From the NCBI GenBank assembly GCA_963717505.1, contig OY970342.1, forward strand, positions 192,001 to 256,000: a stretch of 64,000 nt of DNA. Direction: 5' to 3'. The translations under genes were made by a program, and so were the position numbers. This DNA comes from Candidatus Eiseniibacteriota bacterium. GTDB taxonomy: Bacteria > Eisenbacteria > RBG-16-71-46. This document shows, piece after piece, positions 14,759 through 38,928 of the stretch. Position 1 is the first letter of the stretch, and the number at the start of each line of letters is the position of its first letter. The notes under the pieces were generated by a model, which had not been told where the DNA came from, did not search any database, and worked only from the letters and a program-made list of their open reading frames with translations.

Positions 14759-14904
14759 ATTTCGTCGACAAGGTGCGCTTCGCGCGTCGCGGCAGGTCAA
14801 GTGGATTCGCGCGCGCGTCGGGAGCGCATCGGTCGCAAGAGAATCGCGTTCGAGCACCCGTGGGCAATTGGACAGCGCCATGGCGAGGCGCGAAACTGCG
14901 GAAC

Positions 14905-20070: not shown

Positions 20071-22050
20071 GTGCTCGAACGATTGCGGGCGGTCCTGATC
20101 GGCGGTCCGAAGAACTTCCTCGACCCCCGCATCCATCACGCGCTGGCCCTGGTCGCCTTCTTCGCCTGGGTCGGTCTCGGCTCCGACGGACTCTCGTCGT
20201 CGTGCTATGGACCCGAGGAGGCGTTTCGCGAGCTGGGTCGCCATCGCCACCTCGCGCTCTACCTGGTCGTTGCGATTGTCGGGACCGTCTTCCTCATTTC
20301 GGCCTCGTACAGCTACATCATCGAGTTGTTCCCGACCGGCGGCGGCGGCTACCTGGTGGCGACCAAGCTGCTGGGACCGACGCCGGGCGTGGTCTCGGGT
20401 GGTGCGCTGGTCGTGGACTACATCCTCACGATCGCGATCTCGGTTGCCTCGGGGTGCGACGCCATCTTCTCTTTCCTGCCGGAGGTCTGGCACGTTTTCA
20501 AGCTCCCGGTCGAGCTGGTGGTCGTCGCCACCCTGAGCAACATGAACGTGCGCGGGGTCAAGGAATCCATCTTCGTCCTGACCCCGATCTTCCTCGGCTT
20601 CATCCTCAGCCACATCGCGCTGATCCTGGTGGGCACCTTCGGGCACGCGACCGCGTTCCCGACGCTGATCCAGGACACCATGATCGACACCCGCGGCGCC
20701 ATCGACGAGATGGGCATGATCGGCGTCGCGCTGGTCTTCCTGCGCGCGTTCTCGCTGGGCGGCGGCACGTTCACGGGCATCGAGGCGGTCAGCAACAGCA
20801 CCGAGATCCTGCGCGAGCCGCGCGCGGTCACCGGGCGACGGACCATGCTCTACATGGCGATCTCGCTGGCGTTCACCGCCGGCGGCATTCTGCTCAGCTA
20901 CCTGATCAACGACGTTCACCACGAGACCGGCAAGACGCTGAACGCCTCGCTGTGGTCGACGTTGACTTCGGGCTGGCAGATCGGCGGCTGGAACATCGGG
21001 CCGGGGGTGGTGGTGTTCACCCTCCTCTCGGAGGGGGCGCTGCTGTTCGTCGCCGCGCAGACCGGGTTCATCGCGGGTCCGCGCACGCTGGCGGCGATGG
21101 CGGTCGACAACTGGGTGCCCAAGCGTTTCAGCCATCTCTCCGAGCGACTGGTCACCCAGAACGGGGTGCTCACCATGGGACTGGCCGCTGCGCTCACTCT
21201 GCTCTATACCGGCGGCTCGGTGCGACTGCTGGTGGTCATGTACTCGATCAACGTGTTCCTGACCTTCACGCTGACCCAGCTCGGCATGGTGCGGCACTGG
21301 ATCAACGTGCGCAGCGAGGTCGTACACTGGCGGCGCCGCCTTACCGTGGCGTTGCTCGGCACCGGCGTGACCGGTGGCATTCTGGTGGTGACCACGGTGG
21401 TCAAGTTCCAGGAAGGCGGCTGGGTGACGTTGCTGGCGACCGGAGGCTTCGTCGGCTTCTGTTTCATCGTTCGCACGCACTATCGGCGCGTGCAGAAGCT
21501 ACTGTCGTCGCTCGACGAGGTGCTGACCAACATCCCGATGCAGGACCCCAAGGAGCAGCCCGAGCTTGACCCCGAAGGCGCGACCGCGATCGTGCTGGTC
21601 GAATCGTATCGTGGGCTCGGGATTCACACGCTGCTCTCGATCCATCGCATGCTGCCGCGGCACTTCAAGAACTTCGTGTTCTGCTCGGTCGGCCTGGTCG
21701 ACTCCGGTCAGTTCAAAGGGGTTCGCGAGCTGGAAGCACTCGAGCAGAAAGTGCGGAAGGATCTCGAGAAATACGTCGCGCTCGCGAATCGAATGGGGTT
21801 CTACGCCGAGTATCGCTTTACCATGGGCACCGACCTGATCCAGGAACTCGAGGGTCTCTGCCTCGATCTGGTCAAGGAATTCCGGAAGCCCGTGGTGTTC
21901 GCCGGCCAGCTCGTGTTCCAGCGTGAGAACCTATTCACGCGTACGCTGCACCACGAGACTGCGTTCTCGATCCAACGCCGGCTGCAGTTCGCCGGCATTC
22001 AGGTCATCATCCTGCCGATCCGCGTCTGGGAAAAGAAGCGGTCGGCGTAA
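20071..22050 (+). CDS. APC-superfamily permease, KimA-like potassium/amino-acid transporter
   Basis: GSDGLSSSCYGPEE, GGGGYLVA, VDYILT, TGIEAVSN, about 12 TMs plus a cytoplasmic C-terminal domain. GTG start inferred. Confidence 0.85.
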   Translation: MLERLRAVLIGGPKNFLDPRIHHALALVAFFAWVGLGSDGLSSSCYGPEEAFRELGRHRHLALYLVVAIVGTVFLISASYSYIIELFPTGGGGYLVATKLLGPTPGVVSGGALVVDYILTIAISVASGCDAIFSFLPEVWHVFKLPVELVVVATLSNMNVRGVKESIFVLTPIFLGFILSHIALILVGTFGHATAFPTLIQDTMIDTRGAIDEMGMIGVALVFLRAFSLGGGTFTGIEAVSNSTEILREPRAVTGRRTMLYMAISLAFTAGGILLSYLINDVHHETGKTLNASLWSTLTSGWQIGGWNIGPGVVVFTLLSEGALLFVAAQTGFIAGPRTLAAMAVDNWVPKRFSHLSERLVTQNGVLTMGLAAALTLLYTGGSVRLLVVMYSINVFLTFTLTQLGMVRHWINVRSEVVHWRRRLTVALLGTGVTGGILVVTTVVKFQEGGWVTLLATGGFVGFCFIVRTHYRRVQKLLSSLDEVLTNIPMQDPKEQPELDPEGATAIVLVESYRGLGIHTLLSIHRMLPRHFKNFVFCSVGLVDSGQFKGVRELEALEQKVRKDLEKYVALANRMGFYAEYRFTMGTDLIQELEGLCLDLVKEFRKPVVFAGQLVFQRENLFTRTLHHETAFSIQRRLQFAGIQVIILPIRVWEKKRSA

Positions 22051-22061
22051 CGGAGACACTC

Positions 22062-22840
22062 ATGTACACGATCGATCTCTCCGGCCAACACGCGTTGATC
22101 ATGGGCGTGGCCAACCACCGCAGCCTGTCGTGGGCGATCGCCCAGTATCTGCACCAGGCTGGCGCCAAACTCGCGCTGACCTATCAGGGCGACCGGCTCA
22201 AGTCCATGGTCGAGGAGCTGGCCAAGCCGCTGGTCGACGTCCAGCTCATCGAATGCGACGTCACGCGCGACGACCAGATCGACGCGGTCGCCAAGCGCCT
22301 GGGCGAGACCTGGGGCTCGATCGAAATGCTGGTCCACGGCATCGCGTTCGCGCGCAAGGAGGATCTCGAAGGCGACTTTGCCGCGACGTCGCGCGAGGGC
22401 TTTCAGTTGGCACTCGAGATCAGCGCGTATCTCTCTGTCTGAACGTCACGAACCGATTGCTGCCGTTGCTCGAGAAGAACGGCGCGAGCATCGCGACCCT
22501 GTCCTACCTGGCCGCCGAGCGCGCGGTGCCGAGCTACAACGTGATGGGCAGCGCCAAGGCGGTGCTCGAGCAGATCGTGCGCCAGCTCGCGTTCGAATTC
22601 GGTCCCAAGAACATCCGGGTCAACGCGCTGTCGGCCGGGCCGGTGAGCACGCTGGCCTCGCGCGGCATCCAGGGTTTCGTCGGCATGCTCAAAGGCCACG
22701 CAGAGAAGGCGCCGCTCAAGCGCAACATCACCAAGGAAGAGGTCGGCAAGGCCGGACTGTTCCTGCTCACGGACTTGTCGAGCGGCATCACCGGCGAGAC
22801 GCTGTACGTCGACGCCGGGTATCACATCATGGGCTGGTAG
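22062..22840 (+). CDS. fabI: Enoyl-ACP reductase; frameshift ~22432
   Basis: GVANHRSLSWAIA, CDV, HGIAFA, EISAY, then YNVMGSAK, RVNALSAGP, GITGE..YVDAG in the other frame. Confidence 0.9.
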
Positions 22841-22954
22841 CCGCCCCAAAGCTCCGTTTTCCGCGCGGCCGCGCCCCCGGTGGGTCGCTCCAGCATCTGG
22901 CCATCTCCTGGCCACCGACGCCCCGCGAATCGAGTCCTCCCTCCACGAAAGCCC

Positions 22955-22984
22955 GTTCGCCCTCCACCCCCCGAACGTAGGAAG
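22955..22984 (+). promoter_or_regulatory. Putative ECF promoter GTTCG-N16-CGTAGG(AAG), copy 1
   Basis: The same bipartite motif and spacing occur at 31567-31596 (-) and 33042-33068 (+). Confidence 0.65.
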
Positions 22985-23056
22985 GGTCAGGCACCGTGGG
23001 TGCGGCTTCGGCCGAAGCCGGCCGCCGGTGTTTGGACCGAAAAGGAGGAGAAGGTC

Positions 23057-23260
23057 ATGAGGAAGCTCGTCGTCAAAGCCGTCGCCATCGCTCTGGCCCT
23101 GGCAGCGATTCTGCCGGGGATCAGCGCGGCCAAACTGGCGTCGAATCACAACCGCACCCTGCTCAGGGTGGTCGCCATCGCTCTGGCGCTGGCAGCCATT
23201 CTGCCGGGGATCAGTGCGGCCAAACTGGCGTCGAATCACAACCGGACGCTGCTCGGCTAG
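23057..23260 (+). CDS. 67-aa secreted peptide precursor with two identical units VAIALALAAILPGISAA-KLASNHNRTLL
   Basis: Strong SD AGGAGG, ATG 23057, basic N-terminus plus hydrophobic core. The repeat copies differ only at synonymous sites. Confidence 0.85.
   Translation: MRKLVVKAVAIALALAAILPGISAAKLASNHNRTLLRVVAIALALAAILPGISAAKLASNHNRTLLG
23081..23254 (+). repeat. Tandem 84-nt repeat with 90-nt period (23081-23164, 23171-23254)
   Basis: 79 of 84 nt identical; all 5 mismatches are third-codon synonymous. Confidence 0.95.
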
Positions 23261-23402
23261 TCGCGGGCAGGCCGGCCCGGCGCGGAGTCTTCTGCTCCGC
23301 GCTCGGGCCAGCGATTCCGTCGCGAGAGGCGCATCCGTGCGACGCCCGCTGCTCGACCTTCGCGCCCGATGGCTCGGCGCTACAGGGCCCGACCGCGCGC
23401 GG

Positions 23403-25649
23403 ATGGTGTCCCTACCCGCAGCCCTGAACGTAATCATTTGCCTCGTGTCGGCGGCGGTCGCCAGCGCCGACGACCCGGTCTCGCTCCCCCCACTGACCAT
23501 CGCTCGCGCCTCGGGGCCGATCGCCCTGGACGGAGCCCTCGACGATGCCGGCTGGCAGGGCGCAACCCCCATCACCACTTGGTTCGAGACCAACGTCGGC
23601 GACAATGTCGAGCCCCAGGTGCGCAACGTCGCGTTCTTGGCGTACGACTCCCGTTACCTCTATGCGGCGTTCCGGTTCGAGGACCCACGACCCGACGCGA
23701 TTCGCGCACCACTCGGCGATCACGACGCCATGCCGCCCTCGACCGACTACGCCGGCGTGATCGTCAACAGCCTGAACGACGGCAAGACCGCGCAGATGTT
23801 CATGGCCAATCCGCGCGGCGCCCAATACGACGCGCTGAACAGCGATGCCTCGGGCGAGGACAGCGCTCCCGACTTTCTGTGGGACGCGGCGGGCCGCATC
23901 ACCTCGACCGGCTGGTCGTTGGAGATGAGGATCCCGTACGCGTCGTTGCGCTACGCGAACCAGGCGGAACCGACGTGGCAGATCATGCTCCACCGCAACT
24001 ATCCGCGGGATCGGCGCTATCAGTTCTTCACCGCGCGAATCCCACGCGACGCCAACTGCTTCGTGTGCAGCTCGACCCCGTTGGTCGGCCTCGCCGACTT
24101 GCCTCGCGGATCGCACCTGGTGGTGGCACCGTACGTGACCGCGCAAGGAGCCCAAGTTCCCCAGGGCGACCCAGGCAGTCCACTCGAGACCCGGGCCACC
24201 GAGACCGACGGTGGTCTGGACCTCAAGTGGAGCCCGTCGACCAGCGGTGCCATTGATCTCACGATCAACCCCGACTTCTCCCAGGTCGAGTCCGATGCCG
24301 CACAGATCACGGCCAACGAGCGCTCGGCGCTGTTCTTCCCCGAGAAGCGTCCGTTCTTCCTCGAAGGCGTCGACCTGCTGTCCACGCCACTGCCGGTGGT
24401 CTACACGCGCTCGATCACGTCACCGCGCGCCGGCCTTCGCGCCACCGGGAAACGCGGCGGCACGGCGTTCACCGCGCTGGTCACCCACGATCGCGGCGGT
24501 GGGCTCGTGATCCTGCCCGGGCCGCAGGGCTCGGGGTTCGCACTTCAAGACTTCCCCTCCGACGTCGGCATCCTGCGGGTTCGTCACGACCTCGGGAGCT
24601 CGTTCGTGAGCCTGCTCGCCACCGGGCGCATGCTCGACCAGGGCGGCAGTAATCTGGTGGTCGGCCCGGACGCCCAGTGGCGACCGAGTGATTCCGACGC
24701 GCTCACAGCCCAGGCGTTGTGGAGCCAGAGCCAGACGCCGAACCTGCCCGAGCTGGCCGCCGAATGGGACGGCCGCGTCTTGAACGACCATGCGCTCTTT
24801 CTCGATTGGTCGCATACCACCGAACGGGTCGACTGGGTACTCGAGACCCTCGACATTGGCTCCGATTTTCGCGCCGACAACGGCTTCATGCCGCAGGTCG
24901 GATATCGCGAGGCGTATCTCGACGCCGGCTACACGCTGCGCCCCGATCAGGCGTTCGCCTCGCGGATTCGCTTCTTCACCGAGGACTACTACGACGTCGA
25001 GCCCGACGGGCGCCCGCTCAACCAGCATCTGTCTCTGGGGTCCGAGATGGACGGTCTGTGGAACAGCCTCACGCGCTTCGAGGTCAATCTCGAGAACGTC
25101 CGCGTCGGCGAGGCCTGGCTCCAGCGCTTCCGCCCGCGCGTGTTATTCCAGGCCAGCCCGGGTCGGATCCTGAACCAGTTCACGCTCGATACACGCTTCG
25201 GCCAGGAGATCGACTTCGACAACGCACGCGAAGGCGACGGAATCAACGTCGTGGCCAGCGTAACCGTGCGTCCGAACGCGCACCTCGAGGTCCAGGGCAA
25301 CAGCGATCTCAGGACCTTGAACGCCGCGTTGCCGGGCGGCCCCCGCATGCGGGTGTTCACGGCGGGGGTCGGACGCGTTCGTGCAACCTGGTCGTTCACC
25401 GCGCGTGCGTTCGTGCGAGTGGTCGGCCAGTACGTCGAGACCCGCCGCGACCCGACGATGTACACCTTCGAGGTCCCGTCTCGCGAGGCGGAACTCACCG
25501 GCTCGGCACTCGCCGCCTACAAGGTCAACTGGCAGACTGTGTTCTACCTCGGCTACGGGGACGCGACGACCTGGGCCGTGTCGCGGGCCGATTGGGCGCC
25601 CGGAGCCCGGGAAGTGTTCGCCAAGGTGTCGTACGCGTGGCAGGAGTAG
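23403..25649 (+). CDS. CBM9-like/DUF5916 outer-membrane protein
   Basis: IALDGALDDAGW, AYD..YLY, EMRIP, TINPDFSQVESD, FFPEKRPFFLEG, C-terminal FAKVSYAW beta-strand. Confidence 0.85.
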   Translation: MVSLPAALNVIICLVSAAVASADDPVSLPPLTIARASGPIALDGALDDAGWQGATPITTWFETNVGDNVEPQVRNVAFLAYDSRYLYAAFRFEDPRPDAIRAPLGDHDAMPPSTDYAGVIVNSLNDGKTAQMFMANPRGAQYDALNSDASGEDSAPDFLWDAAGRITSTGWSLEMRIPYASLRYANQAEPTWQIMLHRNYPRDRRYQFFTARIPRDANCFVCSSTPLVGLADLPRGSHLVVAPYVTAQGAQVPQGDPGSPLETRATETDGGLDLKWSPSTSGAIDLTINPDFSQVESDAAQITANERSALFFPEKRPFFLEGVDLLSTPLPVVYTRSITSPRAGLRATGKRGGTAFTALVTHDRGGGLVILPGPQGSGFALQDFPSDVGILRVRHDLGSSFVSLLATGRMLDQGGSNLVVGPDAQWRPSDSDALTAQALWSQSQTPNLPELAAEWDGRVLNDHALFLDWSHTTERVDWVLETLDIGSDFRADNGFMPQVGYREAYLDAGYTLRPDQAFASRIRFFTEDYYDVEPDGRPLNQHLSLGSEMDGLWNSLTRFEVNLENVRVGEAWLQRFRPRVLFQASPGRILNQFTLDTRFGQEIDFDNAREGDGINVVASVTVRPNAHLEVQGNSDLRTLNAALPGGPRMRVFTAGVGRVRATWSFTARAFVRVVGQYVETRRDPTMYTFEVPSREAELTGSALAAYKVNWQTVFYLGYGDATTWAVSRADWAPGAREVFAKVSYAWQE

Positions 25650-25744
25650 TATTGATCCCGAAGCGCTGATAGACCAAGGCGTTGGGGGTGAAGTCTCGTG
25701 TTCGCCGCGTCACGTGCCCGACCCGCCCGCCGCCGAGGCTCCCC

Positions 25745-28700
25745 ATGAGCCTCGGCGCTCGTGCTTGCCTGATTGGGCTGATCGTTCAGGCATTCGCCAT
25801 CTCGTCCACTCCCCGGGCGCAGACTCCGCCACCGGTCACCCCGCGATTCTCCCCGGTTCTTCTGGTGCCTCGGCCGGCGCGCAGCACCGGAGCGGAATGG
25901 GATTCGCTCGAGCGCTTCGAGCGCACCGGACGTTGGGCCGCCTCGGAGAGTTTGGCCACCACATTGATCCACGCGTCGGAGGCTGCCGGAGCACGAAAGG
26001 ATTCCCTCGACTACTCGCGCGCGCTCTTCTACTTCGGCAACTCAAGGCTCATGCGCCGGCTTTACGCCGACGGCCGCGGATTCGAGTCCCTCGAGCGGGG
26101 CATCGGCATTCGCGAGCGCCGGGCCGGAGCCAACGACACGCTGTGCACCTGGGCTCACGTGAAGGCGGCGACGCTCTATCCGGAGGCAGGAGACCCTGAT
26201 CTCGGTCTCGCGCACGGAGAAGTCGGCTTGCGAAGGCTGCTGGCTCGAACCCCAACCGACACCTCCATGCTGGCGCAGGCGCACCTCGCGGTGGCGGCTG
26301 CCCTGATCGCACTCGGTCGCGACGCCGAAGCCGGCCCGCATTTCGAAGATGCCCTCCACTTTCGCGAGCGTGCCGATGCGGGCGAGGGGCGGCTCATGGT
26401 GCCGATGCTCGCCGAGTACGGAGGCTACTTGTCGCGAGCCGGAGAGCTCGATCGTGCGCGAGCCATGCTGCAGCGCGCCGTGCGCATCGCCGAGCACGAT
26501 CCCAACCCCGGATCCGATTTCTACGCCCAGTCCTTGGGCCGGCTGTCCTCGTTCGAAAATCGGGTCGGCAACGTCGCCGAGTCGATCGAGCTCGCGTGGC
26601 GTGCCTACGACGCCTCGCGTCGCCTGGGGGAAATCACGGTGCCCGCGCTGCGGGCGCGCACGGTGCTCGCCTATCGATTGCAGGATTTCGGCGACCCGCA
26701 AGGCTCGGTTGCACTGCTGCGCGAGATTATTCCGGGCCTCGAGACTACGGTCGGGGCGAACAACGCCCAGACGCTCAATGCCCGACTTGCGCTGGTCTGG
26801 GCCCTCATCGAGATCGGCGACACGGCGACGGCCGAGCGTGAGCTCGCGGCGGCGCGGCCGGCGTTGGCCACTCAGAATCCCAGGACCAGCAACAATCCGG
26901 TGTATGCGATGCAGCTCTCGGGCGACCTCGCGGGCCTGCGCGGCTTCCACATTGCCGCCCGCGAGACGCTGGCAGGCGCGGTGGCTCTCGAGCGAGTCCG
27001 GCACGACCCCTTCGGAGCCCGCGAGGCCGTCCTGCTGGCCCACCTGATGGACAACCTGCTCGAGCCCGCGGATCGCGACCGCGTCCTCGAGGTCGGGCGG
27101 CAGATCGACCGCCTACGCGACAGCACGCACGTTCGCGCCACCCCCGAGTGGCACACGCTACTCCTGGCTCGCGGGTCGGCGGAAGGGCGAGTGGGCCTGC
27201 AAACGGCGGCATGGGAACACGCGCTCGAGGCGGAGCGACTGTCCCGGGAACTCCTCACCTATCAGTTGGAGGCGTTGCCGGACGTGCGCGGGCTCCAGCT
27301 GGCGCGCGCGCTCGGCGGGCCGTGCGAGCTGCTGGCCGCGCTCGTCAATCCTGACTCGGCGGGCCGCGTGGCGACCGCCTGGGACCGCATCGTGCGCTGG
27401 CGCGGCGTCGTCGGCCACGAGATCGCCCGTCGCCGGGCTCCGGTCGCCGCCGCGAGCGACAGTGCCCTGGCTGCCGCCCATGCGCGATGGGTGTCCGCGC
27501 AGCGCCAGCTCGCCCAGCTCGTGGTCAGCGGGGCCGCGCACCCGGACGACCCGGAGAGCGCCGAACGCTTCTCTGCGGCGTTCCAGCGCGCCGAAGATGC
27601 CGAGCGTGCGTTCCTTCGCTCGGCGCGTGGCTCGGTCCCGGCGGATTCGGTGGCGGGGCTCGATCTTGTCCTCGACCAGCTCGATCCGCACCAGGCTCTG
27701 ATCGCGTTCACGGTGGCCGACCGCGGGGCGGGTCCCCCCAACCTCGGGGCGTTCATCGCCGACGGTGGCGAGCGACAGCCGCGCTGGATCACGCTCGGTC
27801 CGCTCCCGGAGATCGAGCACGACATTCGATCGTGGGTTCGGCTGCTGGCAGCGCCCCCCACGGCCGACCGCGATGGCGAACGCGCGTGTCGAGAGCTGGG
27901 ACAGAAGGTGCGCTCGCGGGTGTGGGATCCCGTCCGGCGCGCGGCGGGGAACGCCCGCGAGCTGATCCTGGTGGCGGAAGGCGTGGTGACCGAGCTTCCG
28001 TGGCTCGCACTCCCTGAGCCCCATGGGAAGTACCTTGCCGACACACCGCTGATCGTGCGTCTCGTGGATGCAGAACGCGACCTGCTGCCGGATCGATCGT
28101 CGACCGCCGAGGGTCGTGGTCTGCTCGCGGTCGGTGGCCCGAATTTCGGAACGCCGGAAGCCGCGGGCTCGGTGGCGCTGGCATCCGCAGGATCTGAACA
28201 CCGGATTCCGCCACGTTCACCGTGCGTGCCCCGGGCCTTGTCCCTGTCCGAGCTGCCGTCGGCACGGCGCGAGGCTGAGGGCATCGCTCGCTCGTGGCCG
28301 ACTCCCGATGGACCGTCGGATCTGCTGGTGGGCGCCGAGGCCAGCGAGTTCGCACTCAAGACCCACTCTCCGGGCAAGGCCGTGATCCACGTGGCGACGC
28401 ACGGCGTCATGCTCGACGATACCTGCCGCGCCGCCGGGCTTCCGGGCACGCGGGGACTGGGTGGCGTCGAGCCGCTCGACTCTCCCACCGCGAAGCCCGC
28501 ATCCCCCAAGCTCAAGAACGTGGCGCCGCCGACACGACCCGCGCTCCCCGACCCTTGGCTGGCCCGACGCGTCTGGCTCGCGCTCGCCGGCGCCAATCGC
28601 CCCGTACCCGACAGAGCCGACGAGAACGAGGGCCTGTTGACCGCCGAAGAAGTGGTCACGCTCGATCTGCGGGGCACGCAATGGGTCGTGCTCTCCGCCT

Positions 28701-28981
28701 GCTACTCGGGCGCCGCGCAGAGCTGGGCGCGCGAAGGGGTCCTGGGCATGAACCGGGCGTTTCATCTCGCAGGCGCCCGCGCGGTCATCGCCAGCCGATG
28801 GGCGGTCGGCGACGAGTCGGCAACCGAGTGGATGACCGCGCTCTATGAATCCCGCGCGCGGCACACGAGCGCCGGTGCGGCAGTGGGCGAAGCCTGCCGC
28901 ACTGTGCTCGCCAGGCGCCGCGCGCAGGGCCGCACCACGCATCCCTTCTATTGGGCGGCGTTCAGCGCCACCGGCGACTAG
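25745..28981 (+). CDS. Exported TPR-CHAT (caspase/separase-like) protease
   Basis: Signal-like N-terminus, TPR-like repeats, LPWLAL, catalytic HVATHG and VVLSAC, ASRWAVGD, HPFYWAAF. Confidence 0.9.
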   Translation: MSLGARACLIGLIVQAFAISSTPRAQTPPPVTPRFSPVLLVPRPARSTGAEWDSLERFERTGRWAASESLATTLIHASEAAGARKDSLDYSRALFYFGNSRLMRRLYADGRGFESLERGIGIRERRAGANDTLCTWAHVKAATLYPEAGDPDLGLAHGEVGLRRLLARTPTDTSMLAQAHLAVAAALIALGRDAEAGPHFEDALHFRERADAGEGRLMVPMLAEYGGYLSRAGELDRARAMLQRAVRIAEHDPNPGSDFYAQSLGRLSSFENRVGNVAESIELAWRAYDASRRLGEITVPALRARTVLAYRLQDFGDPQGSVALLREIIPGLETTVGANNAQTLNARLALVWALIEIGDTATAERELAAARPALATQNPRTSNNPVYAMQLSGDLAGLRGFHIAARETLAGAVALERVRHDPFGAREAVLLAHLMDNLLEPADRDRVLEVGRQIDRLRDSTHVRATPEWHTLLLARGSAEGRVGLQTAAWEHALEAERLSRELLTYQLEALPDVRGLQLARALGGPCELLAALVNPDSAGRVATAWDRIVRWRGVVGHEIARRRAPVAAASDSALAAAHARWVSAQRQLAQLVVSGAAHPDDPESAERFSAAFQRAEDAERAFLRSARGSVPADSVAGLDLVLDQLDPHQALIAFTVADRGAGPPNLGAFIADGGERQPRWITLGPLPEIEHDIRSWVRLLAAPPTADRDGERACRELGQKVRSRVWDPVRRAAGNARELILVAEGVVTELPWLALPEPHGKYLADTPLIVRLVDAERDLLPDRSSTAEGRGLLAVGGPNFGTPEAAGSVALASAGSEHRIPPRSPCVPRALSLSELPSARREAEGIARSWPTPDGPSDLLVGAEASEFALKTHSPGKAVIHVATHGVMLDDTCRAAGLPGTRGLGGVEPLDSPTAKPASPKLKNVAPPTRPALPDPWLARRVWLALAGANRPVPDRADENEGLLTAEEVVTLDLRGTQWVVLSACYSGAAQSWAREGVLGMNRAFHLAGARAVIASRWAVGDESATEWMTALYESRARHTSAGAAVGEACRTVLARRRAQGRTTHPFYWAAFSATGD

Positions 28982-28982
28982 G

Positions 28983-31499
28983 TCATCGCACCTTCACGAT
29001 TCGCGCGCTGGCGTCCGAGTTCGCAGTGCGGACCCGCGCAAAGTACACGCCTGGGGACGCCTCCCGACCGTTCTCCTCACGGCCGTTCCACGACAGAACG
29101 TGTTCCCCCGCGGTAAGACCTCGGCGGCAAAGGACCCGAACCCGCCGACCCGACAGGTCGCACAGTTCCACGGTCGCCTCATCCGCGACCGGCATGGAGA
29201 TCACGAGCTGGGTGGCGTCGTGCATCGGATTCGGGCGCGCGGAGAGTTGGATCATCGACGACGACAGCCCCGGTGATTCGTCGACACCGACCAGGGGCGC
29301 CTCGAAGCCGGCGATTCTGCCCTGGCGACGTTGCGACATGAAGTCGAACTCACCGCCAACATAGATGGCGCTGCCGACCCGCGCGATGACCCACACCGCG
29401 TCACTGGCGTCGGGATTCCAGTCCTCGAGAGTGCCGTCGGCCGCCTGAATGGTCGCCATCCGATGGCGCGTCTGACTCGCGATCGTTGAGAAGCCGCCAC
29501 CCACGAGAACGCTACCCCCGTCGACCTCCAGCGCCTGGATCCAGCCGTCCACCTCCCCGGCATTCCAGGCAGGTTTCGCCAGTCCGTTCGCGACTTCGAG
29601 GGCAGCGACCCGGTCGCGATTGAGCCCGCCGATGTTCGAGAAGTAGCCACCGACATACATCGTCCCACCATCGATCTCGAGGGCGCGCACAAAGTTGTTG
29701 GCGTTCGGGCTCCATCCGGTGAGGGCGTCGCCGGCGGAGGCGTCGAGCGCCGCAATGTAGTTGCGATTGCGGCTGCCGATGTTGGTGAAGTCGCCACCGG
29801 CGTAGACGATGCCGCCGCTGGCCGCCAGTGCATGAATCGGTGCATTGGCACTGGGATCCCAGGGCCTGACGTCGCCGGTCGTGGCGTCGATCGCCGCCGC
29901 ATTGGAGCGCGGGAAACCGTTGACCTGGGTGAACTGTCCGCCCGCGTAGACGGTGCCGCCGCTGATCGCGAGTGCGTAGGCTGGGCCATCGGCCATCGGG
30001 GCCCAGTCCGTGGGCACTCCCGTGTTCGCATCGATGGCGGCCAGGTATCCACGAGGCTGACCGCCGACGGACGCGAACCATCCGCCCGCGTACACGGTGG
30101 AGCCTTCGAGGGCGAGCGACGTCACCCAGCCCCCAAAGATTCCGATCCCGCGCACGTCCGGGTTCCAGGGTTTGGGCGCACGGGTGGCGAGGTCGATGGC
30201 CAGCAGCGCGTTCCGTTTCAGACCGCCAACATGCATGAAGATCCCGCCCGCGAAGACCGTGGATCCGCTCAAAGCGCACGCGTGCACGGTTTCGAACGGC
30301 GCCGGATCCCAGGCTCGGGGCGCTCCGGTCGCCAGGTCGACAGCTCCGAGATGGCGTCGCACTTCCCCACCGATCGAGGTGAAGTATCCACCGAGATAGA
30401 GCGTGCTTCCATCTCGGGTCATGGCGTTGACCCGTGCGGCCGCGCTCAGATCAGGGTTCCAAGCCAGGAGGCCCCCCGAGCCATTGATCGCCGCAAGCCC
30501 GTTGCGCTGGATTGAGTTGAGGAACGAAAACGCCCCGCCGGCAATGAGCGTCGGTCCGTTGACGATCAACGAATACACCGGGCCGTCGGCGACCGGCCAC
30601 CACGTCGTGGGTGTGTTGGTGGCGCCGCTCGTCAAGTTGAACGAGGCAAGATGCCCCCGAGGCTGTCCGCCGATGTTGTCAAAACTACCGCCCACGTAGA
30701 GCGTGGTGGAGGCCGAGGGAAACACCACGACTCTCACGGCCAGGGAGCTCACGTACTGATCCGGGTTCGGCTGCCATCCGGTCGGATCACCGGTGGCGGT
30801 GTCGATGGATCCAAGGTGAAGGCGGCTCTGGCCGCGAAGGGTCGTGAAATATCCGCCGACGTAGATCGTGCTGCCCAGCGGCAGAATGGCACGCACCGTC
30901 TGGTCGGCATTGGGATCCCATCCGGTCGCGAGCCCCAGCGTGGTGTCGAGCGCCGCGATTCGGTTTCGGTCCTCACCGCCGACGTGGGTGAATTCCCCAC
31001 CGACGTAGAGAACGCCCCCGCTCAAGGCCAGCGCGTGGACGGGCGCATTCGCGGCCGGATTCCAGGACGTGAGATTGCCGAGGGCATCGATGCGCGCCAG
31101 CCCATTGCGCACCTGGCCCGCCACCGAAGTGAAAGAACCCCCGACGTACCAACCGCCAGCGCCGTCCGCGGTGACGGCGCTCACGATGCCACCGAAGTAC
31201 TCACCGCTCGGCATGGCGCCTTCGATCATCGGATAGGGCATCAGCGGCTGCCCAGTGGTGACATCGATGCCACACCCGGCTCCCGTGTTCGGTGCGATGT
31301 GCGAGAACACGCCGCCGACGTAGAGCGTGCCCCCGGTCTCGACCATAGCCCTCACGGTCCCGTCCACGGACCACAGGTCGGTGATCGGGGTCTGCGAGGC
31401 AGCCACGGATGGAATACAGAGAAACATGAACAACGAGAGTGCGGTCCGAATTCCTCGATCCCGCGCGTCCGGAAGCCCGGCAAGCCGACAAGAGCGCAT
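28983..31499 (-). CDS. Secreted multi-repeat beta-propeller protein with C-terminal FlgD-Ig domain
   Basis: About 14 repeats of W.P...V.AL......YVGG.F..IGG..R..LAA.D, and RPNP..GRRVRVL..WNG..PGVYF. Confidence 0.85.
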   Translation of the reverse strand: MRSCRLAGLPDARDRGIRTALSLFMFLCIPSVAASQTPITDLWSVDGTVRAMVETGGTLYVGGVFSHIAPNTGAGCGIDVTTGQPLMPYPMIEGAMPSGEYFGGIVSAVTADGAGGWYVGGSFTSVAGQVRNGLARIDALGNLTSWNPAANAPVHALALSGGVLYVGGEFTHVGGEDRNRIAALDTTLGLATGWDPNADQTVRAILPLGSTIYVGGYFTTLRGQSRLHLGSIDTATGDPTGWQPNPDQYVSSLAVRVVVFPSASTTLYVGGSFDNIGGQPRGHLASFNLTSGATNTPTTWWPVADGPVYSLIVNGPTLIAGGAFSFLNSIQRNGLAAINGSGGLLAWNPDLSAAARVNAMTRDGSTLYLGGYFTSIGGEVRRHLGAVDLATGAPRAWDPAPFETVHACALSGSTVFAGGIFMHVGGLKRNALLAIDLATRAPKPWNPDVRGIGIFGGWVTSLALEGSTVYAGGWFASVGGQPRGYLAAIDANTGVPTDWAPMADGPAYALAISGGTVYAGGQFTQVNGFPRSNAAAIDATTGDVRPWDPSANAPIHALAASGGIVYAGGDFTNIGSRNRNYIAALDASAGDALTGWSPNANNFVRALEIDGGTMYVGGYFSNIGGLNRDRVAALEVANGLAKPAWNAGEVDGWIQALEVDGGSVLVGGGFSTIASQTRHRMATIQAADGTLEDWNPDASDAVWVIARVGSAIYVGGEFDFMSQRRQGRIAGFEAPLVGVDESPGLSSSMIQLSARPNPMHDATQLVISMPVADEATVELCDLSGRRVRVLCRRGLTAGEHVLSWNGREENGREASPGVYFARVRTANSDASARIVKVR

Positions 31500-31566
31500 G
31501 AGGTTCCCCCTCTGGGAAAACGCCCACCCGGATGGCGGGGCAGTTCTCCGCGCATCGGGCTCAATG

Positions 31567-31596
31567 CTTCCTACGTTTCGGGGGACCCGTCCGAAC
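31567..31596 (-). promoter_or_regulatory. Putative ECF promoter GTTCG-N16-CGTAGG(AAG), copy 2
   Basis: Minus strand GTTCG-gacgggtcccccgaaa-CGTAGGAAG in the gap upstream of ATG 31499. Confidence 0.65.
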
Positions 31597-31601
31597 ACAC
31601 T

Positions 31602-32997
31602 TCACTGGCCTGCCGCGGTCTCGACCTCGAGTGCGTGCTCGTCATCGACCCGCACGCGCTCGAGCGGGCCGATCAGCCGCGCCCGCACGCGCCACAACAG
31701 GAACGCGGCGACACCCGCCAGACCGGCGACGAAGCCCCACCACAGGCCGACCACGCCACCGCCCTCTCGAAAACCGAGCCACAGGCTGACCGGCATGCCC
31801 ATCAGCCAGAAGCCGAGGATGTTGACCACCATCGGAGCCCGCGTGTCGCCGATGCCGCGCAGGATCCCGGTCGCCACCACCTGCAGGCCGTCGAACACCT
31901 GGAACACGCCGGCGATCGGGATCAACGCCGCGGCCACCGCCACCACCCCCGGCACCGAGGTGTAGAGCCGCGCGAGCAGCTCGGGGATTGCCAGCATCAT
32001 CCCGGCGCAGGCGCCCATGAACACGGCGCCCACGATCAGCGCCGCGGTCGCAACCCGTCGCGCCTGGAGCGCGTCGCCCTCGCCCACCGCGTGCCCGACC
32101 ATGACTGATGCCGCGCTCGAGACGCCGAGCGGCACCATGAAGGTCAGCGACGCCAGGTTGATCGCGACCTGGTGGCCGGCCACCGACTCGGTGCCGAACC
32201 AGCCGGCGAGCAGGGCGATCACGGCGAAGGCGCCGAATTCGAGCGTGAACTGGATGCCGATCGGCGCCCCAATTCGCAGCGTGCGCCACATCGGGCCGGC
32301 GCGCAGCGTGTCGCGATCGACCGGCAGCAGAATTTCCCTCAACCGCCGCCAGGTCAACGACACCAGCAGAACCAGCATGAACCAGCGGCCGATCACGGTC
32401 GCCAGCGCCGAGCCGGCCGAGCCCATCGCCGGCGAACCCAGGTGCCCGAACACGAAAGTCCAATTCAGTCCCAGGTTCAACAGGTTGGCGGCGACGATGG
32501 TGATCACGATCGCCCCGACCTGGCGCATCGCCTGCAGGCTCTGGCGCAGTACGACCACCACGAAGAACGGCAGCATGCCCGGAATCGAGATCCAGACGAA
32601 CCTCGCGGCCAGCGGTACCACGTCGGCCGGCTGCCGCAACGCACCGAGGATCACATCGGCCGGCAGGCACAGCAGGGCCGCAGGCAGACTGAGAAGCACG
32701 CCCGAGCGCGACCCCGCGTTGTACGCCGCGCGCGACCGCGCGCGTGTCGCGGGCGCCGACCGCCTGCGACACGATCGGGTCCACGGACATCAAGCAGCCC
32801 ATGCCGAACGCTGCCAGCCCGAAGAAGTAGAGATTTCCGAGCGCGACAGCGGCCAGGTCGCGGGCCGAGACCCGCCCGACCACGATGGTGTCGACCACGC
32901 CCATGAGCATGAGCCCGACCTGGACGGCGACGATCGGCACCGCGAGCCGGAAGAGCGCGCGGGTGTCGGCGGCGGTGGGCAGGAACGTGCGGAGCAT
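31602..32997 (-). CDS. MATE family efflux transporter (NorM-like); frameshift ~32700
   Basis: LAVPI..MGVVDTIVVGR..LAAVALG, QAVGA, AGHQVAIN..FMVPLG, FQVFDGLQ..GILRG.GDT. Confidence 0.88.
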
Positions 32998-33041
32998 GGG
33001 CCGGGAGTGGTCTCAGAACCGGCCCGGCCGGCGCAACTCCT

Positions 33042-33068
33042 GTTCGTCCGCCGCCCCTCGGCCGTAGG
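33042..33068 (+). promoter_or_regulatory. Putative ECF promoter GTTCG-N16-CGTAGG, copy 3
   Basis: GTTCG-tccgccgcccctcggc-CGTAGG, ending 7 nt before ATG 33076. Confidence 0.65.
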
Positions 33069-33075
33069 TGCTTTC

Positions 33076-33849
33076 ATGGGACGTATCCTCCTCGAGCTTC
33101 GTGCCCGCTGGTCGGCCCACTTCGCAGACTGGGAGTGTTCAGGCGGCCATTACGATCGGGCCGAGCGCATGCTACGGGCCGCTCTGGCGCTGGCCGAGCG
33201 CGCGGGGTCGGATCCTTCGCTGCGCCTGGCGCTGTTCAACAGCCTCGGAGTCGTCCACAAGTACCAGGCACGTTACGCAGACAGTCGACGAGCCTACCGC
33301 GAGGCACTCATGATCGTGCGCGCCCAAATCGGACGCGAGCACCCTCTGCCCCCGGCGCTCTACCACAACCTGGGCGGGCTCGAGCACGCACGCGGGAGAT
33401 TCGCGCGTGGCGAAGTGCTGGCGCGCCGCGGACTCGCCCTGCGCGAGCGCGCGCTGGGTCGCGAGCACCTCGACGTGGCCCGCGATCTGGAGGCGTTGGC
33501 CGCCATCGTGGATGGGCGCAAGCGGCATCGTGAGGCCGAGGCGCTCCACCGGCGAGCGCTCGCCATTTTCCAGCACCGACTTCGGGCCGAGCATCCGGAT
33601 ACGGCCGCCGCACTCGCCAATCTGGCGGCGTGCCTTCACTTCCAGGGGCGCTCGACCGAGGCCGAGTGTGTAGGCCTGCAGGCCGTGGCCATGAGCCGCA
33701 GAATCCTGGGCGCGACCCATCCCGAAACCCAGGCGGCCGAGGCGAATCTTGCCGTCATCCAGAGCACGCGCGTCCCCGGCCGCGGCTCCGAGGAAGTGGG
33801 GCCGACCCTCGGGGCGCCGCTCGGTTCGCCCGCGCCGACTCGGCTGTAA
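33076..33849 (+). CDS. Tetratricopeptide repeat protein (TPR_12 / kinesin-light-chain type)
   Basis: Repeats of the form NSLG..A..I....G.EHP..A..NL. Confidence 0.85.
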   Translation: MGRILLELRARWSAHFADWECSGGHYDRAERMLRAALALAERAGSDPSLRLALFNSLGVVHKYQARYADSRRAYREALMIVRAQIGREHPLPPALYHNLGGLEHARGRFARGEVLARRGLALRERALGREHLDVARDLEALAAIVDGRKRHREAEALHRRALAIFQHRLRAEHPDTAAALANLAACLHFQGRSTEAECVGLQAVAMSRRILGATHPETQAAEANLAVIQSTRVPGRGSEEVGPTLGAPLGSPAPTRL

Positions 33850-33936
33850 GGCTGCCGGCGCGCAGCCTCGTACTCCTGCGCTGATCGGCAAACACAGCGG
33901 ATTCCCAGAGCCGCAGCCGGGGGCTAGAATCGGCGT

Positions 33937-34545
33937 GTGCCGCCCCCTCCCGAAAGGGCTGATCCTTCGACGACCAGCCCGGTGCTCTCGACCCGGGAAC
34001 TCCTGCGACTCGCCAAGGACGGCGACTCGCTCGCGCAGGAGCGTCTCTTCGCCCGCTACCTGCCCCGTCTGGCCCGCTGGGCGAGCGGCCGCCTGCCGAT
34101 GTACGCCCGCTCGATGCTCGACACCTCGGATCTGGTCCAGGAGACCCTGATGCGGGTGTTCACCGGGCTCGATCGAATCGAGGTCCGCGGGCCTGGTGGT
34201 TTCCAGGCCTATGTTCGCCAGGCGGTGCTCAACCGTATCAGGGATGAAGTGCGGAAGGCCGCCCTGCGGCCCGGCCCGGACGGAGTGCCCGAGTCGCTGC
34301 CGGATCCGGCGGCTTCGCCGCTCGAGAATGCGATCGGCGCCGACGTGCTCGAGCGATTCGAGCGGGCGCTAGCCACGCTGGATGAAGACGATCAAGAGGT
34401 GCTGCATCTGCGCATCGAGCTCGGCTTCGAATACCAGGAGATCGCCGAGATGACCGGACGACCGAGTCGCGACGCGGCGCGCATGGCGGTGCAGAGAGCC
34501 CTGGCGCGACTGGCGGAGGGAATGGCGGTGACTCATGAGCGCTGA
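33937..34545 (+). CDS. ECF sigma factor, kinase-associated type
   Basis: Sigma2 LFARY..DTSDLVQE..NRIRD, sigma4 YQEIAE..AVQRALARL. Overlaps the kinase start; no anti-sigma gene nearby. Confidence 0.92.
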   Translation: MPPPPERADPSTTSPVLSTRELLRLAKDGDSLAQERLFARYLPRLARWASGRLPMYARSMLDTSDLVQETLMRVFTGLDRIEVRGPGGFQAYVRQAVLNRIRDEVRKAALRPGPDGVPESLPDPAASPLENAIGADVLERFERALATLDEDDQEVLHLRIELGFEYQEIAEMTGRPSRDAARMAVQRALARLAEGMAVTHER

Positions 34546-36238
34546 CCAGGACCTGTTCCAGCATCTGCTCGACTCGGTTTCGGACGGCAAGCCGGTCCAC
34601 GACGACGCGGGGCGGAACGCCAGCGAGCCCATGCGCGCGCGGATCGCGGCGGTCCATCAGCTGGCAAGAATCTCCGAGTTCAACCGCCGGCTCCAGCAAG
34701 TACCCGCAACACCCTCCCCCGAGCGATGGGGCGGGCTCGTGGTCCTCGAGCCGATCGGCGTCGGGTCCCGCGGCCACGTGTTCCGGGCCTGGGATCCGAC
34801 CCTCCAGCGCGAGGTCGCGCTCAAGCTGCTCCGCCCCGGATCCGACGAAGGCACGCTCATGGACGAAGGTCGCGCCGCAGCGCGCATCCGCCATCCGAAC
34901 GTCGTCACCGTGCTCGGCATCGACCGCCACGACGGACAGATCGGGATGTGGATGGAGCTGGTGCGCGGCACGAGCCTCGAGCAAGAGGTTCGCGACCGCG
35001 GCGCGCTCGCGGCTCGAGACGCGATCCAGACTCGGACTTCAGATCGCCTCGGCCCTGGCCGCGGTCCACGCCCAGGGGATCCTCCATCGCGACATCAAGC
35101 CGGCCAACGTGATCCGCGACTCCGAGAGTCGGTTCGTGCTCGCCGACTTCGGGCTCGGCCGGCGTTGGAACCTGGAAGCGCTCGAGTCCGCGGCACCCTC
35201 GGGCACACCGATGTACATGGCCCCGGAGCTGCTCGCCGGAGGCCCGGCGACCGAGCGCACCGACGTCTACGCGCTGGGCATGCTGCTTTGGTTCGCGCTC
35301 GCGGGCCGACATCCCTTCGAAGTTGGCTCGCTGGACGAGCTGTCGAGGCTGGCCCGGCTCGGCCCAAGACCCCGGCTCCGCGAGATACGCCCCGATCTCC
35401 CAGAGGCGCTGGTGGCGGTGGTCGAGCGCGCGATCGCTCCCGAGCCCCAGGCCCGCTTGGCGCGGGCTCGCGATTTGGAAGAGGCGCTGAAGTCGGTCTC
35501 GATTCCGGTCGCATCGACGACGCGGTGGCGGGCGCCGATCTTCGCCGCCGCGGCCATCCTCATACTCGTGGTCGCGGCGGCGTGGTTTGCGCTGCGGCCG
35601 TCTGCGCGCAGCACCCCCGACGTGGCGTCGCCGCCTGCCGGAACATTGATTCAGCCCGCGATCTTCGACATCGAAGCCTCGTTCCTGCGGCGCGACTCGC
35701 GAGGCTCGACCCGGCTACTGACCGGGGATCGGGTGCGGCCCGGGGATCGACTGTCGCTCGAGGTCCACGCGACGCAACCGATCTGGGTGTACGTGCTCAA
35801 CGAAGACGAACGCGGCGAGCACTTTCTGTTGTTCCCTCAGCCGATCTTCGACGTCAGGAACCCGCTCACCGCGAATTCCGACATCGTCCTGCCGGGACCG
35901 ATCGCCGGTCGAGAGAACGCGTGGACGGTGACCAGTGCCGGCGGTCGTGAGCACTTCCTGGTGGTCGCCGCGCTCGAGCCAGTGGCCGAGCTCGAGTCCG
36001 AGCTCGCGCATCTCCCGGCCGCCGAGCCCGGTCGGCCGGTTCGCTACGCCGAGCGTGTCGCCGCCCACGATTCAGGTGTTGCGCGGGGTCGGCGGCGTCG
36101 AGGAAGCGCCGGCGGAGCCGACCTCCCCAGCCGGAAGCCGCACGGGCGTTCGATCGCTTCCGATCGCTGGCCGGCCGCGAATCCGAGGTGCGCGGGGTCT
36201 GGGTGCGCCAGGTGGTGCTCGAGAATCCCGCCCCCTGA
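34535..36238 (+). CDS. Membrane Ser/Thr protein kinase with extracytoplasmic DUF4384-like domain; frameshifts ~35030, ~36050, ~36145
   Basis: IGVGSRG, VALKLL, HRDIKPANV, ADFGL, GTPMYMAPE, DVYALG, one TM, GDRL..VYVLNED..LLFP. Reconstructed end ..LRGVGGVE..GVWVRQVVLENPAP*. Confidence 0.85.
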
Positions 36239-36442
36239 ACCGCGGCGTCGTGCGCAACGTTCCAACAATTTGCGTTCCCTCCCCCGGGGCGGTCCACCCA
36301 CCCCTTCCACTGGGCGGCCTTCGTCGCCAGCGGCGAATAGGCGCCCGGACGCCGCCGGCCCCCGGGAATAGCGGGGCGGGGCCGGCGTACAGGACTCCGA
36401 ACGGCGCGGTTCCTTGCCCGCCGCGCCGACACGGAGGAAGCC

Positions 36443-37345
36443 ATGAACCGCACCCCCAGCAACCGCACCACGGCCTCGATCCTCGCGGTCGCGGCCCTCG
36501 TCGTGGGCGTGCAGACTGCCTGCGCCTACGAACGCATCGCCCGCACTTCGACCCCGCACTACGAGGTCGACGGCAACCTGGTCGACGTCCAGATCCAGGT
36601 CGACGGGGCGAGCGCCCCCTTCTACTTCAAGCCCGGAACCTGGAATCGTCACTACTTCCAGGCCTTCAAGGGACGCAATTACTCGGTCGTCGTGCGCAAC
36701 AACAGCGCCCGCCGCGTCGGTGTCTTGATCGCGGTCGACGGACTGAACGTGGTCAACGGCGAGATCACCCGTCGCGCCCACGATGAGCCGATGTACGTGC
36801 TCGGGCCCTACGAGCGCGCTGTGATCCGTGGCTGGCGCACATCGCTCGACGACATTCGCCGTTTCGTGTTCGTCGACGAGCATCGCTCGTATGCCGAACG
36901 CTCGGGGAAAGCGACCGGCGACCTGGGCTGGATCCGGGTGCTGGCGTTCCGCGAGAGCGAGCCTTGGCCGCGGCTCAAGCTCTTCAACGATCGGCCCCGG
37001 CCCACGGAAGACGAGCTGGGCGCCAATGAAGGCCGGGACGACTCGAACGCCCCGACCCCGCCGCCGACGGCCGGACGCGAAGAGCCCCGCGCTCAGGCTC
37101 AGAAGGAGTCCCAGGGCGACACGCGCGGGCCCGCGGCGGCGAATCCGGGGACCGGCTGGGGCGAGCATCGCAACGATCCGGTGCGCGAGGTCGACTTCCA
37201 GCCGGTGAACCGGCCGACCGACCACCTGGTCATGCGCTACGAGTACGCGTCCGGACTCCAGGCGCTCGGGATCTACCCGCGCGGCGACCGGACGTGGGAA
37301 CGCGAACGGGGCGAACTGGGATTCGCGCAGCCTCCGCGCCGATAG
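36443..37345 (+). CDS. Conserved exported hypothetical protein
   Basis: SD GGAGG, signal peptide, Y...VRN..VDGLNV..GWR..F.F, low-complexity linker, GTGWGE. Confidence 0.8.
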   Translation: MNRTPSNRTTASILAVAALVVGVQTACAYERIARTSTPHYEVDGNLVDVQIQVDGASAPFYFKPGTWNRHYFQAFKGRNYSVVVRNNSARRVGVLIAVDGLNVVNGEITRRAHDEPMYVLGPYERAVIRGWRTSLDDIRRFVFVDEHRSYAERSGKATGDLGWIRVLAFRESEPWPRLKLFNDRPRPTEDELGANEGRDDSNAPTPPPTAGREEPRAQAQKESQGDTRGPAAANPGTGWGEHRNDPVREVDFQPVNRPTDHLVMRYEYASGLQALGIYPRGDRTWERERGELGFAQPPRR

Positions 37346-37370
37346 TCCCAGGGACAGGCGTCCCGCATCG

Positions 37371-37405
37371 AGCGCCGGGTCTGGACGACCCGGCGCTTCG
37401 CGTTT
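37371..37405 (+). terminator. Probable intrinsic terminator
   Basis: 10-bp stem AGCGCCGGGT / ACCCGGCGCT followed by a weak T-tract. Confidence 0.5.
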
Positions 37406-37465
37406 GCGGACGAAGCGCGATTCCTGAGACAGTTACGGACCTCGGCGGCCGCGTACGGGTAATAC

Positions 37466-38476: not shown

Positions 38477-38592
38477 CGCCGCTCCACTGGGACTCAGCCC
38501 TCGCTGGTCTTCGGCCGATACCGATGCCGTCACCCGGTCGCTTGTCGATCCTGCATCCACCCACTAGGCTCTCGCGTCCCGTGATACGTCCG

Positions 38593-38928
38593 ATGATCCG
38601 TCGCATGCTGGTGCTCGCGTTCCTCGCCTGGAACGTCCTCGCGCTGCCTTCGCTGTGCAGCTCGGGTGCCCTCGAGCACGCTTGCGCGTGTGGCGTGTCG
38701 GACAGCTGCGGTCACGAAACGCGCTGCGCCGGCGATCCCTGCTCGTTCGCAAGGCCTGCGAACGACGGCAAGGCGACACTGACGCTCCACCATGCGCACT
38801 CGGCGCTCGTGGTTCTGCCCCTCGGTGGGCCCGCGACGACGGCCCTTCGGCTCGCGTCCCGACCTCAGACGCGTCCCCTTCCGCCACCCTCCGCACTCGA
38901 ACCAGGAGCGCGTCCGCTCCTCGCCTGA
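38593..38928 (+). CDS. Small exported Cys/His-rich protein (CzcI/DUF2946-like)
   Basis: Signal-like N-terminus, HACAC..CGHE..C..DPC, HHAH, Pro-rich end. First gene before czcC. Confidence 0.6.
   Translation: MIRRMLVLAFLAWNVLALPSLCSSGALEHACACGVSDSCGHETRCAGDPCSFARPANDGKATLTLHHAHSALVVLPLGGPATTALRLASRPQTRPLPPPSALEPGARPLLA

Follow-up and report, generated by a model that had tools for sequence, protein, structure and literature searches.

A putative ECF-type promoter motif and local regulon beside a kinase-linked sigma factor gene of Candidatus Eisenbacteria

Comparison with described ECF systems

This study concerns a 64,000-nt stretch of Candidatus Eisenbacteria DNA (contig OY970342.1, positions 192,001 to 256,000; the whole stretch is called the window here) and a two-block motif, GTTCG-N16-CGTAGG, which stands upstream of three putative transcription units, one of them coding for a sigma factor of the extracytoplasmic function (ECF) type and a Ser/Thr kinase. 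Promoters of ECF sigma factors commonly have a CGT-type -10 element and a 16-nt spacer and are often autoregulatory; the -35 element of the common type contains AAC. The sigma-W promoter of Bacillus subtilis, for instance, reads TGAAAC-N16-CGTA. A CGTA-type -10 element is also recorded for ECF11 (GTGATC...CGTA) and for ECF16 SigF (GTAACC-CGTA) in the accessible part of PMC7826278. According to the same part of this source, the classical CGTA-type promoters resemble the window sites in that they consist of two blocks with a spacer of about 16 nt and a CGT(A) -10 block and often stand before the operon of their own sigma factor. In the accessible text of its supplement the string GTTC occurs only as the -10 element of ECF36. 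Unlike the classical promoters, the window sites have GTTCG without AAC in the -35 position. A departure from the AAC type had been claimed in a preliminary description of the locus, and it extends to the related sites reported below, where the putative -35 block reads GTTCG or GTCCG and is not preceded by any consistent AAC.

Concerning ECF sigma factors that are linked to protein kinases, the mechanism is to our knowledge understood for ECF43 only. Members of this group, EcfP-PknT of Vibrio parahaemolyticus and EcfK-PknS of Xanthomonas citri, resemble the window locus in having a transmembrane Ser/Thr kinase gene directly after the ECF gene and no anti-sigma partner (PMC13147305, PMC7826278, both in their accessible parts, which also limit the comparisons that follow). 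The acidic DxxD of sigma 2.2 is replaced in ECF43 by uncharged residues (QTTA), and a phosphorylated Thr provides the missing charge (PMC13147305, PMC7826278). The window ECF matches Pfam Sigma70_ECF and shares with ECF43 a conserved Thr inside the DxxD position, its sigma 2.2 reading DTSDLVQE (DTSD). Unlike ECF43, it belongs to a family that keeps the acidic residues: D-T-x-D with an invariant Thr is present in 112 of the best 120 of 2074 homologues. ECF43 is further set apart by the extracytoplasmic TPR sensor of its kinases, where DUF4384 is found in the window and at two related loci, by its occurrence in Proteobacteria and by its predicted motif, GTC / CAG as against GTTCG / CGTA (PMC7826278). 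Membership of the window ECF in ECF43 was rejected on the grounds of the retained DxxD and of DUF4384 in place of TPR in the kinase. An ECF43-style phospho-switch, which had also been suggested earlier, found no support since sigma 2.2 keeps its acidic DxxD (DTxD).

The kinase-linked groups ECF43, 59-62, 217, 267, and 283 are reported from Proteobacteria or Planctomycetes only, as far as the accessible part of PMC7826278 extends. There, ECF59, 61, 62, 217, 267, and 283 are similar to the window locus with respect to a conserved kinase neighbour and the usual lack of an anti-sigma factor, and the promoters predicted for ECF59, 61, and 267 are weak or absent ('TC in -35' for ECF59; not conserved for ECF61 and ECF267). 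The actinobacterial group ECF54 has a TPR-CHAT protein nearby and no anti-sigma factor, as the window has, but differs in its motif (GTATCAG / CTCC), its subtilase and carboxypeptidase-regulatory neighbours, the lack of a kinase, and its phylum (PMC7826278, accessible part). Since the motif is a different one, the records are labelled Eisenbacteria, and no subtilase was found among the open reading frames (ORFs) scanned (18300-48032), membership in ECF54 was rejected as well. CRISPR-associated TPR-CHAT or SAVED-CHAT proteases reportedly act on sigma or anti-sigma partners. As in these systems, the window shows genetic linkage between a TPR-CHAT protease gene and an ECF sigma factor; in contrast to them, no CRISPR-Cas genes were seen in the window, and CHAT would here be a target of the putative ECF promoter.

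The search for relatives of the ECF protein returned 2074 proteins at E<=1e-3, the best 120 of which are 69-99% identical to it; the few named relatives carry the label Candidatus Eisenbacteria. From the NCBIfam models only the superfamily TIGR02937 passed (79.2 bits, cutoff 42.9). None of the named ECF subfamilies reached its curated cutoff, the best one being TIGR02984 with 73.1 against 183.75 bits. Full-text literature searches gave nothing relevant on sigma factors of Eisenbacteria, nor on the combination of DUF4384, kinase, and sigma factor. Judged by its sequence, the locus appears to comprise an ECF promoter and its regulon; the kinase-linked ECF family to which the sigma factor belongs is unclassified, and the -35 block is unusual.

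Two-block sites in the window and at related loci

With a probability of roughly 70% we take the motif to be an autoregulated ECF promoter that serves a small local regulon, the sigma factor being controlled by a transmembrane DUF4384 kinase. RNA polymerase bearing the local ECF (33982-34545) would read all three intergenic GTTCG-N16-CGTA sites, with GTTCG as the -35 and CGTA as the -10 element and with transcription starts that are likewise predicted. Site 3 would drive the operon of a TPR protein, the ECF, and the kinase and would thereby provide positive feedback, and sites 1 and 2 would bring two further units, for envelope or secreted proteins, under this control, namely the NHNxT peptide-DUF5916-TPR-CHAT genes and a beta-propeller of the type IX secretion system (T9SS) type. 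The activity of the sigma factor would most likely be set by the transmembrane Ser/Thr kinase transcribed together with it, which would have its DUF4384 facing outward and would activate the sigma factor. The preliminary description had proposed a shared ECF-type promoter and a local regulon; this proposal is supported by the anatomy of the sites, by their gene-facing positions near the ECF gene, and by the recurrence of the motif at three of four related loci.

Because the window has a G+C content of 68%, genes were called first from the G+C at third codon positions and afterwards with Pfam. A pattern search of the whole window for GTTCG-N16-CGTAGG gave exact matches at 22955-22981(+) (site 1), 31570-31596(-) (site 2), 33042-33068(+) (site 3), and 61046-61072(-). 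The first three had been described before and were found at the positions and on the strands given for them, and the frame analysis together with the Pfam gene map bore out that all three are intergenic and face a gene. The earlier list was incomplete, as the fourth match had been overlooked. This match lies antisense within the gene of the NAD-dependent DNA ligase (ligA); with this position, and no gene nearby that it could drive, we take it as a chance match. Sites 1 and 2 both run on as CGTAGGAAG, as had been noticed earlier, and they also have CCCCCGAA in common immediately 5' of the -10 block. The three sites stand before three putative transcription units, all at most 11 kb from the ECF sigma gene, which is the sole sigma-factor gene among the window ORFs scanned and whose operon is headed by site 3. 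The window contains 30 CGTAGG hexamers, 4 of which have GTTCG at -21. When one mismatch was allowed, three additional matches appeared in the window, all of them within ORFs supported by their G+C pattern.

A scan of genome contigs with the ECF gave ten loci, whose ECF proteins are 71% (L001), 48-52% (L002-L004), and 25-32% (L005-L010) identical to that of the window. Since the ECFs of L005-L010 are distant and no kinase homologue was found there by tblastn, these six loci were excluded from the motif comparisons. A Pkinase gene directly follows the ECF gene in all five loci that were compared (window, L001-L004), and in the window, L002, and L004 the kinase has DUF4384 after one hydrophobic helix. 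Sigma 2.2 reads DTGD in L001 and DTDD in L002-L004. No anti-sigma Pfam domain was found in the ORFs neighbouring the five ECF-kinase pairs. From this absence and from the constant pairing we conclude that control of the sigma factor probably lies with the receptor kinase transcribed together with it.

GT(T/C)CG-N16-CGTT is found beside the ECF-kinase pair at three of the four related loci (L002-L004). Within the window and L001-L004, the longer form GTYCG-N16-CGTTTC has just three occurrences, one each in L002, L003, and L004, and all of them are intergenic. Two of them, at 9817-9843 of L002 and 2398-2424 of L003, stand about 100 nt 5' of the start of the ECF gene; the one of L004 (2949-2975) follows directly after the kinase stop codon, 94 nt 5' of a secreted-protein gene. 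In each locus the hexamer of this site is the sole CGTTTC preceded by such a -35 block (1 of 6 in L002, 1 of 3 in L003, 1 of 10 in L004). Another site of L003, GTCCG-N16-CGTT at 661-685(+), stands 95 nt 5' of a secreted-protein gene directly upstream of the ECF gene, and both sites of this locus share the same -35 variant. The spacer is 16 nt at the three window sites and at the four sites of L002-L004; the -10 core reads CGTA in 3/3 of the former and CGTT in 4/4 of the latter. In three of the five loci (window, with site 3, L002, and L003) a site is situated upstream of the ECF gene or operon itself. In L001-L010 the form GTTCG-N16-CGTA is confined to coding sequence, and one place where it occurs is a conserved part of the ECF gene itself; therefore CGTA is not conserved among the relatives but only GTYCG-N16-CGT is. 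Searched over 111,044 nt, the relaxed consensus GTYCG-N16-CGTW gave 16 matches, 8 of which are within the 8.6% that is intergenic. Seven of these eight intergenic matches adjoin ECF-kinase pairs, and the eighth precedes ligA.

Chance, repeats and other readers of the sites

Several observations weigh against an autoregulated ECF promoter. The motif comparison rests on four related loci, and in the intergenic DNA of all four the exact window motif (CGTA form) is absent. L001, the closest relative of the four (71% identity), has no N16 site 5' of the ECF gene. All that it offers is GTTCG-N15-CGTC, some 430 nt upstream of that gene, and, in front of duplicated FG-GAP genes, GTTCG-N16-CGGA. The ECF gene of L004 is preceded only by a candidate with two mismatches, read from the sequence. 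The relaxed consensus was fitted post hoc with the loci already seen. In the window itself, the kinase gene falls into three segments, its reading frame changing near 35024 and again somewhere from 36033 to 36137. When all dyads of a 5-mer and a 6-mer were counted over the whole window, equally extreme dyads appeared at every spacer from 14 to 19, GTTCG/CGTAGG holding rank three at spacer 16; and 28 of 300 Markov shuffles (9%) equalled the intergenic dyad described below when no ECF-like restriction was applied. The near-matches before two FG-GAP genes of L001 were rejected as separate support, since the upstream regions are duplicated (83% identical over 98 nt) and the matches therefore not independent.

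These counts bear above all on the alternative that a dyad chosen post hoc turned up three times by accident in intergenic DNA of high G+C content and was read selectively. Taken as given, the pattern is expected 0.03 times per window, and 0/100 shuffles reached four matches, so that the low chance estimate of the preliminary description holds for a fixed pattern; it was too generous in that the motif had been chosen after looking, which the estimate ignored. Within a set of 30 curated intergenic regions (5,475 nt) GTTCG/CGTAGG was the top dyad with a nominal p of 2.3e-7, the runner-up having 5.4e-6. If only ECF-like dyads are admitted (-10 hexamer starting with CGT, spacer 16 or 17, both set a priori), 3 of 2000 shuffles equalled it. 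The counts alone are thus suggestive and become strong only under the ECF prior. In favour of chance there is also the exact match in ligA, which has no plausible function. A relaxed match to the consensus, GTCCG-N16-CGTT at 60296-60320(+), lies 36 nt 5' of the ligA start codon and is probably due to chance. With these two chance-like matches the pattern is not fully specific, which likewise counts against the promoter reading. On the other side stand the gene-facing orientation of all three sites within 11 kb of the ECF gene and the independent recurrence of GTYCG-N16-CGTT next to ECF-kinase pairs, once in L002, twice in L003, and once in L004. The motif exceeds chance, though less overwhelmingly than had been estimated before, and we consider mere coincidence very unlikely.

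An alignment of six sites showed conservation of GT.CG, CGT, and three scattered columns and of nothing else, and conservation of the two blocks only is the signature of a promoter rather than of a repeat. The stretch CCCCCGAA(A)CGTAGGAAG shared by sites 1 and 2 is longer than the motif and could point to copies of a short repeat or mobile element, similar to repetitive extragenic palindromes (REP) or miniature inverted-repeat transposable elements (MITE). But the flanks could not be aligned, which led us to reject this idea, the spacers differ outside a C-rich run, no repeat family was seen, and an Rfam scan found no RNA family at the three sites; such an origin is highly improbable. The spacers of sites 1 and 2 (22960-22975 and 31576-31591) contain C6 and C5 runs, respectively, between the -35 and -10 blocks. 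These runs are too short for a claim of phase variation, yet they are places where an indel error or slippage would alter the length of the spacer.

A different reader of the sites is a more serious alternative, although still an unlikely one. The sites would then be regulatory but recognized by another factor, either an ECF paralogue from another part of the genome or a regulator that binds DNA at a two-block target. Paralogues of similar specificity are plausible because the ECF family is very large, and it fits this alternative that L001, whose ECF is the closest relative, lacks a clean site. The argument for a DNA-binding regulator would be the inverted repeat GTTCG / CGAAC in site 1. This repeat is perfect in site 1 only, and the blocks are not palindromic and do not form direct repeats; the idea of a transcription-factor palindrome was rejected for the former reason. 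The fixed 16-nt spacer and the CGT -10 block instead fit recognition by a sigma factor. In three other genomes the motif moreover goes along with the ECF-kinase pair, in two of them directly 5' of the ECF gene, and the scanned ORFs of the window offer no second sigma-factor gene as a reader. A scan of 22000-38600 for sigma-70 promoters and terminators gave nothing at the three sites.

If confirmed, the autoregulated ECF promoter would be defined in sequence (GTTCG-N16-CGTA/T) and would supply the first local regulon of an ECF-kinase family that is very abundant and unclassified and belongs to Candidatus Eisenbacteria; for this phylum we know of no cultured model. The retained DxxD with its invariant Thr would make the family a test case for kinase control by a route other than that of ECF43, and the orthogonal-looking -35 block might be of use in synthetic circuits. 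The regulon would also draw attention to the NHNxT mini-proteins, an undescribed family, and would connect a TPR-CHAT protease with an ECF sigma factor outside CRISPR systems.

Putative transcription units and other features of the window

At six of the sites in the window and at the related loci the distance from the -10 block to the start codon is 76-108 nt; at site 3 it is 13 nt. Site 3 (33042-33068(+)), the putative autoregulatory promoter, lies within the 78-nt divergent gap between the start of a MATE gene (32997, minus strand) and the ATG of the TPR gene (33076). Its CGTAGG ends 7 nt before this ATG, which is situated 13 nt past the C of CGTA, and this short distance suggests that the leader of the TPR mRNA is very short or absent. 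The TPR protein (33076-33849(+); TPR_12, E 1.6e-33) is followed by the ECF gene (33982-34545(+), 187 aa; Sigma70_r2, Sigma70_r4_2, Sigma70_ECF), for which GTG at 33937 is an alternative start codon. Directly 5' of the ECF ORF, inside the putative operon, there is a weak sigma-70-like sequence, TTCCCA-17-TAGAAT, at 33902-33930(+). It could allow basal expression of the ECF but carries little weight, since 1.0 such match is expected by chance in 22000-38600. The kinase gene (34535-36371(+); Pkinase, DUF4384), whose start overlaps the ECF stop codon, codes for a Ser/Thr kinase of the Hanks type that has a single transmembrane helix and a predicted outer DUF4384 domain.

Site 1 (22955-22981(+), GTTCG-N16-CGTAGG(AAG)) is the putative ECF promoter of an operon whose first gene codes for a 67-aa mini-protein (23057-23260(+)). 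The distance from the site to the ATG (23057) is 76 nt, and the gene has a strong Shine-Dalgarno sequence. The predicted 5' leader forms a hairpin (22985-23038(+)); the fold of 22985-23056 has -35.2 kcal/mol (z -3.2, 0/200 shuffles as stable) and leaves the Shine-Dalgarno sequence unpaired. A second hairpin, with -45 kcal/mol and z -2.4, follows just 3' of the peptide stop codon (23263-23320(+)). The two hairpins may set the ratio of the peptide mRNA to that of the downstream genes.

The mini-protein consists of two units, each comprising a signal-peptide-like stretch and KLASNHNRTLL. At the DNA level a 90-nt unit is present 1.9 times with 94% identity, the aligned residues being identical. 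A search of 1.84 billion representatives gave 18 other proteins at E<=1e-3, which occur as 38-aa single-unit and 64-75-aa tandem forms and throughout have a conserved N-H-N-x-T...L-R tail. Neither Pfam nor NCBIfam has a family model that covers them, the ESM Atlas gave no usable match for the peptide, and a six-frame pattern search of the window and L001-L010 revealed no further NHNxT peptide genes. By these sequence criteria, the NHNxT mini-proteins qualify as an undescribed family. The second gene of the operon (23337-25649(+)) codes for a predicted secreted DUF5916 protein (PF19313, E 7.3e-11; start codon and signal peptide as read from the sequence), and the third (25682-28981(+)) for a TPR protein with the caspase-like protease domain CHAT (PF12770, E 2.2e-47). 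A TPR-CHAT homologue, 30% identical, is encoded near the ECF-kinase pair of L004 together with FlgD_ig proteins, so that CHAT is found in two of the five loci.

The composition of this operon would also allow a self-amplifying module for peptide signalling or cell fate, in which the kinase-controlled ECF drives the secreted NHNxT peptide, the outer-envelope DUF5916 protein, and the caspase-like TPR-CHAT protein, and the peptide or a product of CHAT cleavage feeds back on the DUF4384 kinase. As the kinase-linked ECF keeps the acidic patch that binds RNA polymerase, it would in such a module be switched otherwise than ECF43. We regard this extension as quite unlikely; if true, the loop would resemble quorum sensing or be gated by a protease, and it would operate in a phylum that is uncultured.

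Site 2 (31570-31596(-), GTTCG-N16-CGTAGG(AAG)), where the ECF promoter of the beta-propeller gene is predicted to lie, begins 6 nt past the stop codon of the MATE gene (31602) and about 70 nt before the ATG of the propeller gene (31499). The predicted secreted protein (28983-31499(-)) has a DUF5122 beta-propeller (PF17164, E 1.3e-23) and a C-terminal FlgD_ig/T9SS type A sorting domain (PF13860; TIGR04183 with 28.4 bits, cutoff 23). Such a FlgD_ig/T9SS-type C-terminal sorting domain is present in five proteins of the window (825-3431, 6417-8087, 9991-10998, 11052-12662, and 28983-31499), among them an M14 carboxypeptidase, and this number suggests heavy reliance on a T9SS-like export route.

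The MATE gene (31602-32997(-)) could only be read in two frame segments. Its frame break and those of the kinase gene may be assembly indels or may mark true pseudogenes. If indel errors were common in the assembly, they could also affect the spacer lengths, though all three sites read 16. The kinase gene of L001 (8264-9652) has an in-frame stop codon, and partial Pfam coverage of an AcrB-type gene (41167-43980) and of a short-chain dehydrogenase gene (21923-22840) hints at further frame breaks. Elsewhere in the window, a cobalamin riboswitch (Rfam RF00174, 73.7 bits) was found at 14634-14770(-) upstream of a TonB-dependent receptor gene, and a perfect palindromic hairpin at 9921-9950, flanked by A and T runs, resembles a bidirectional intrinsic terminator.

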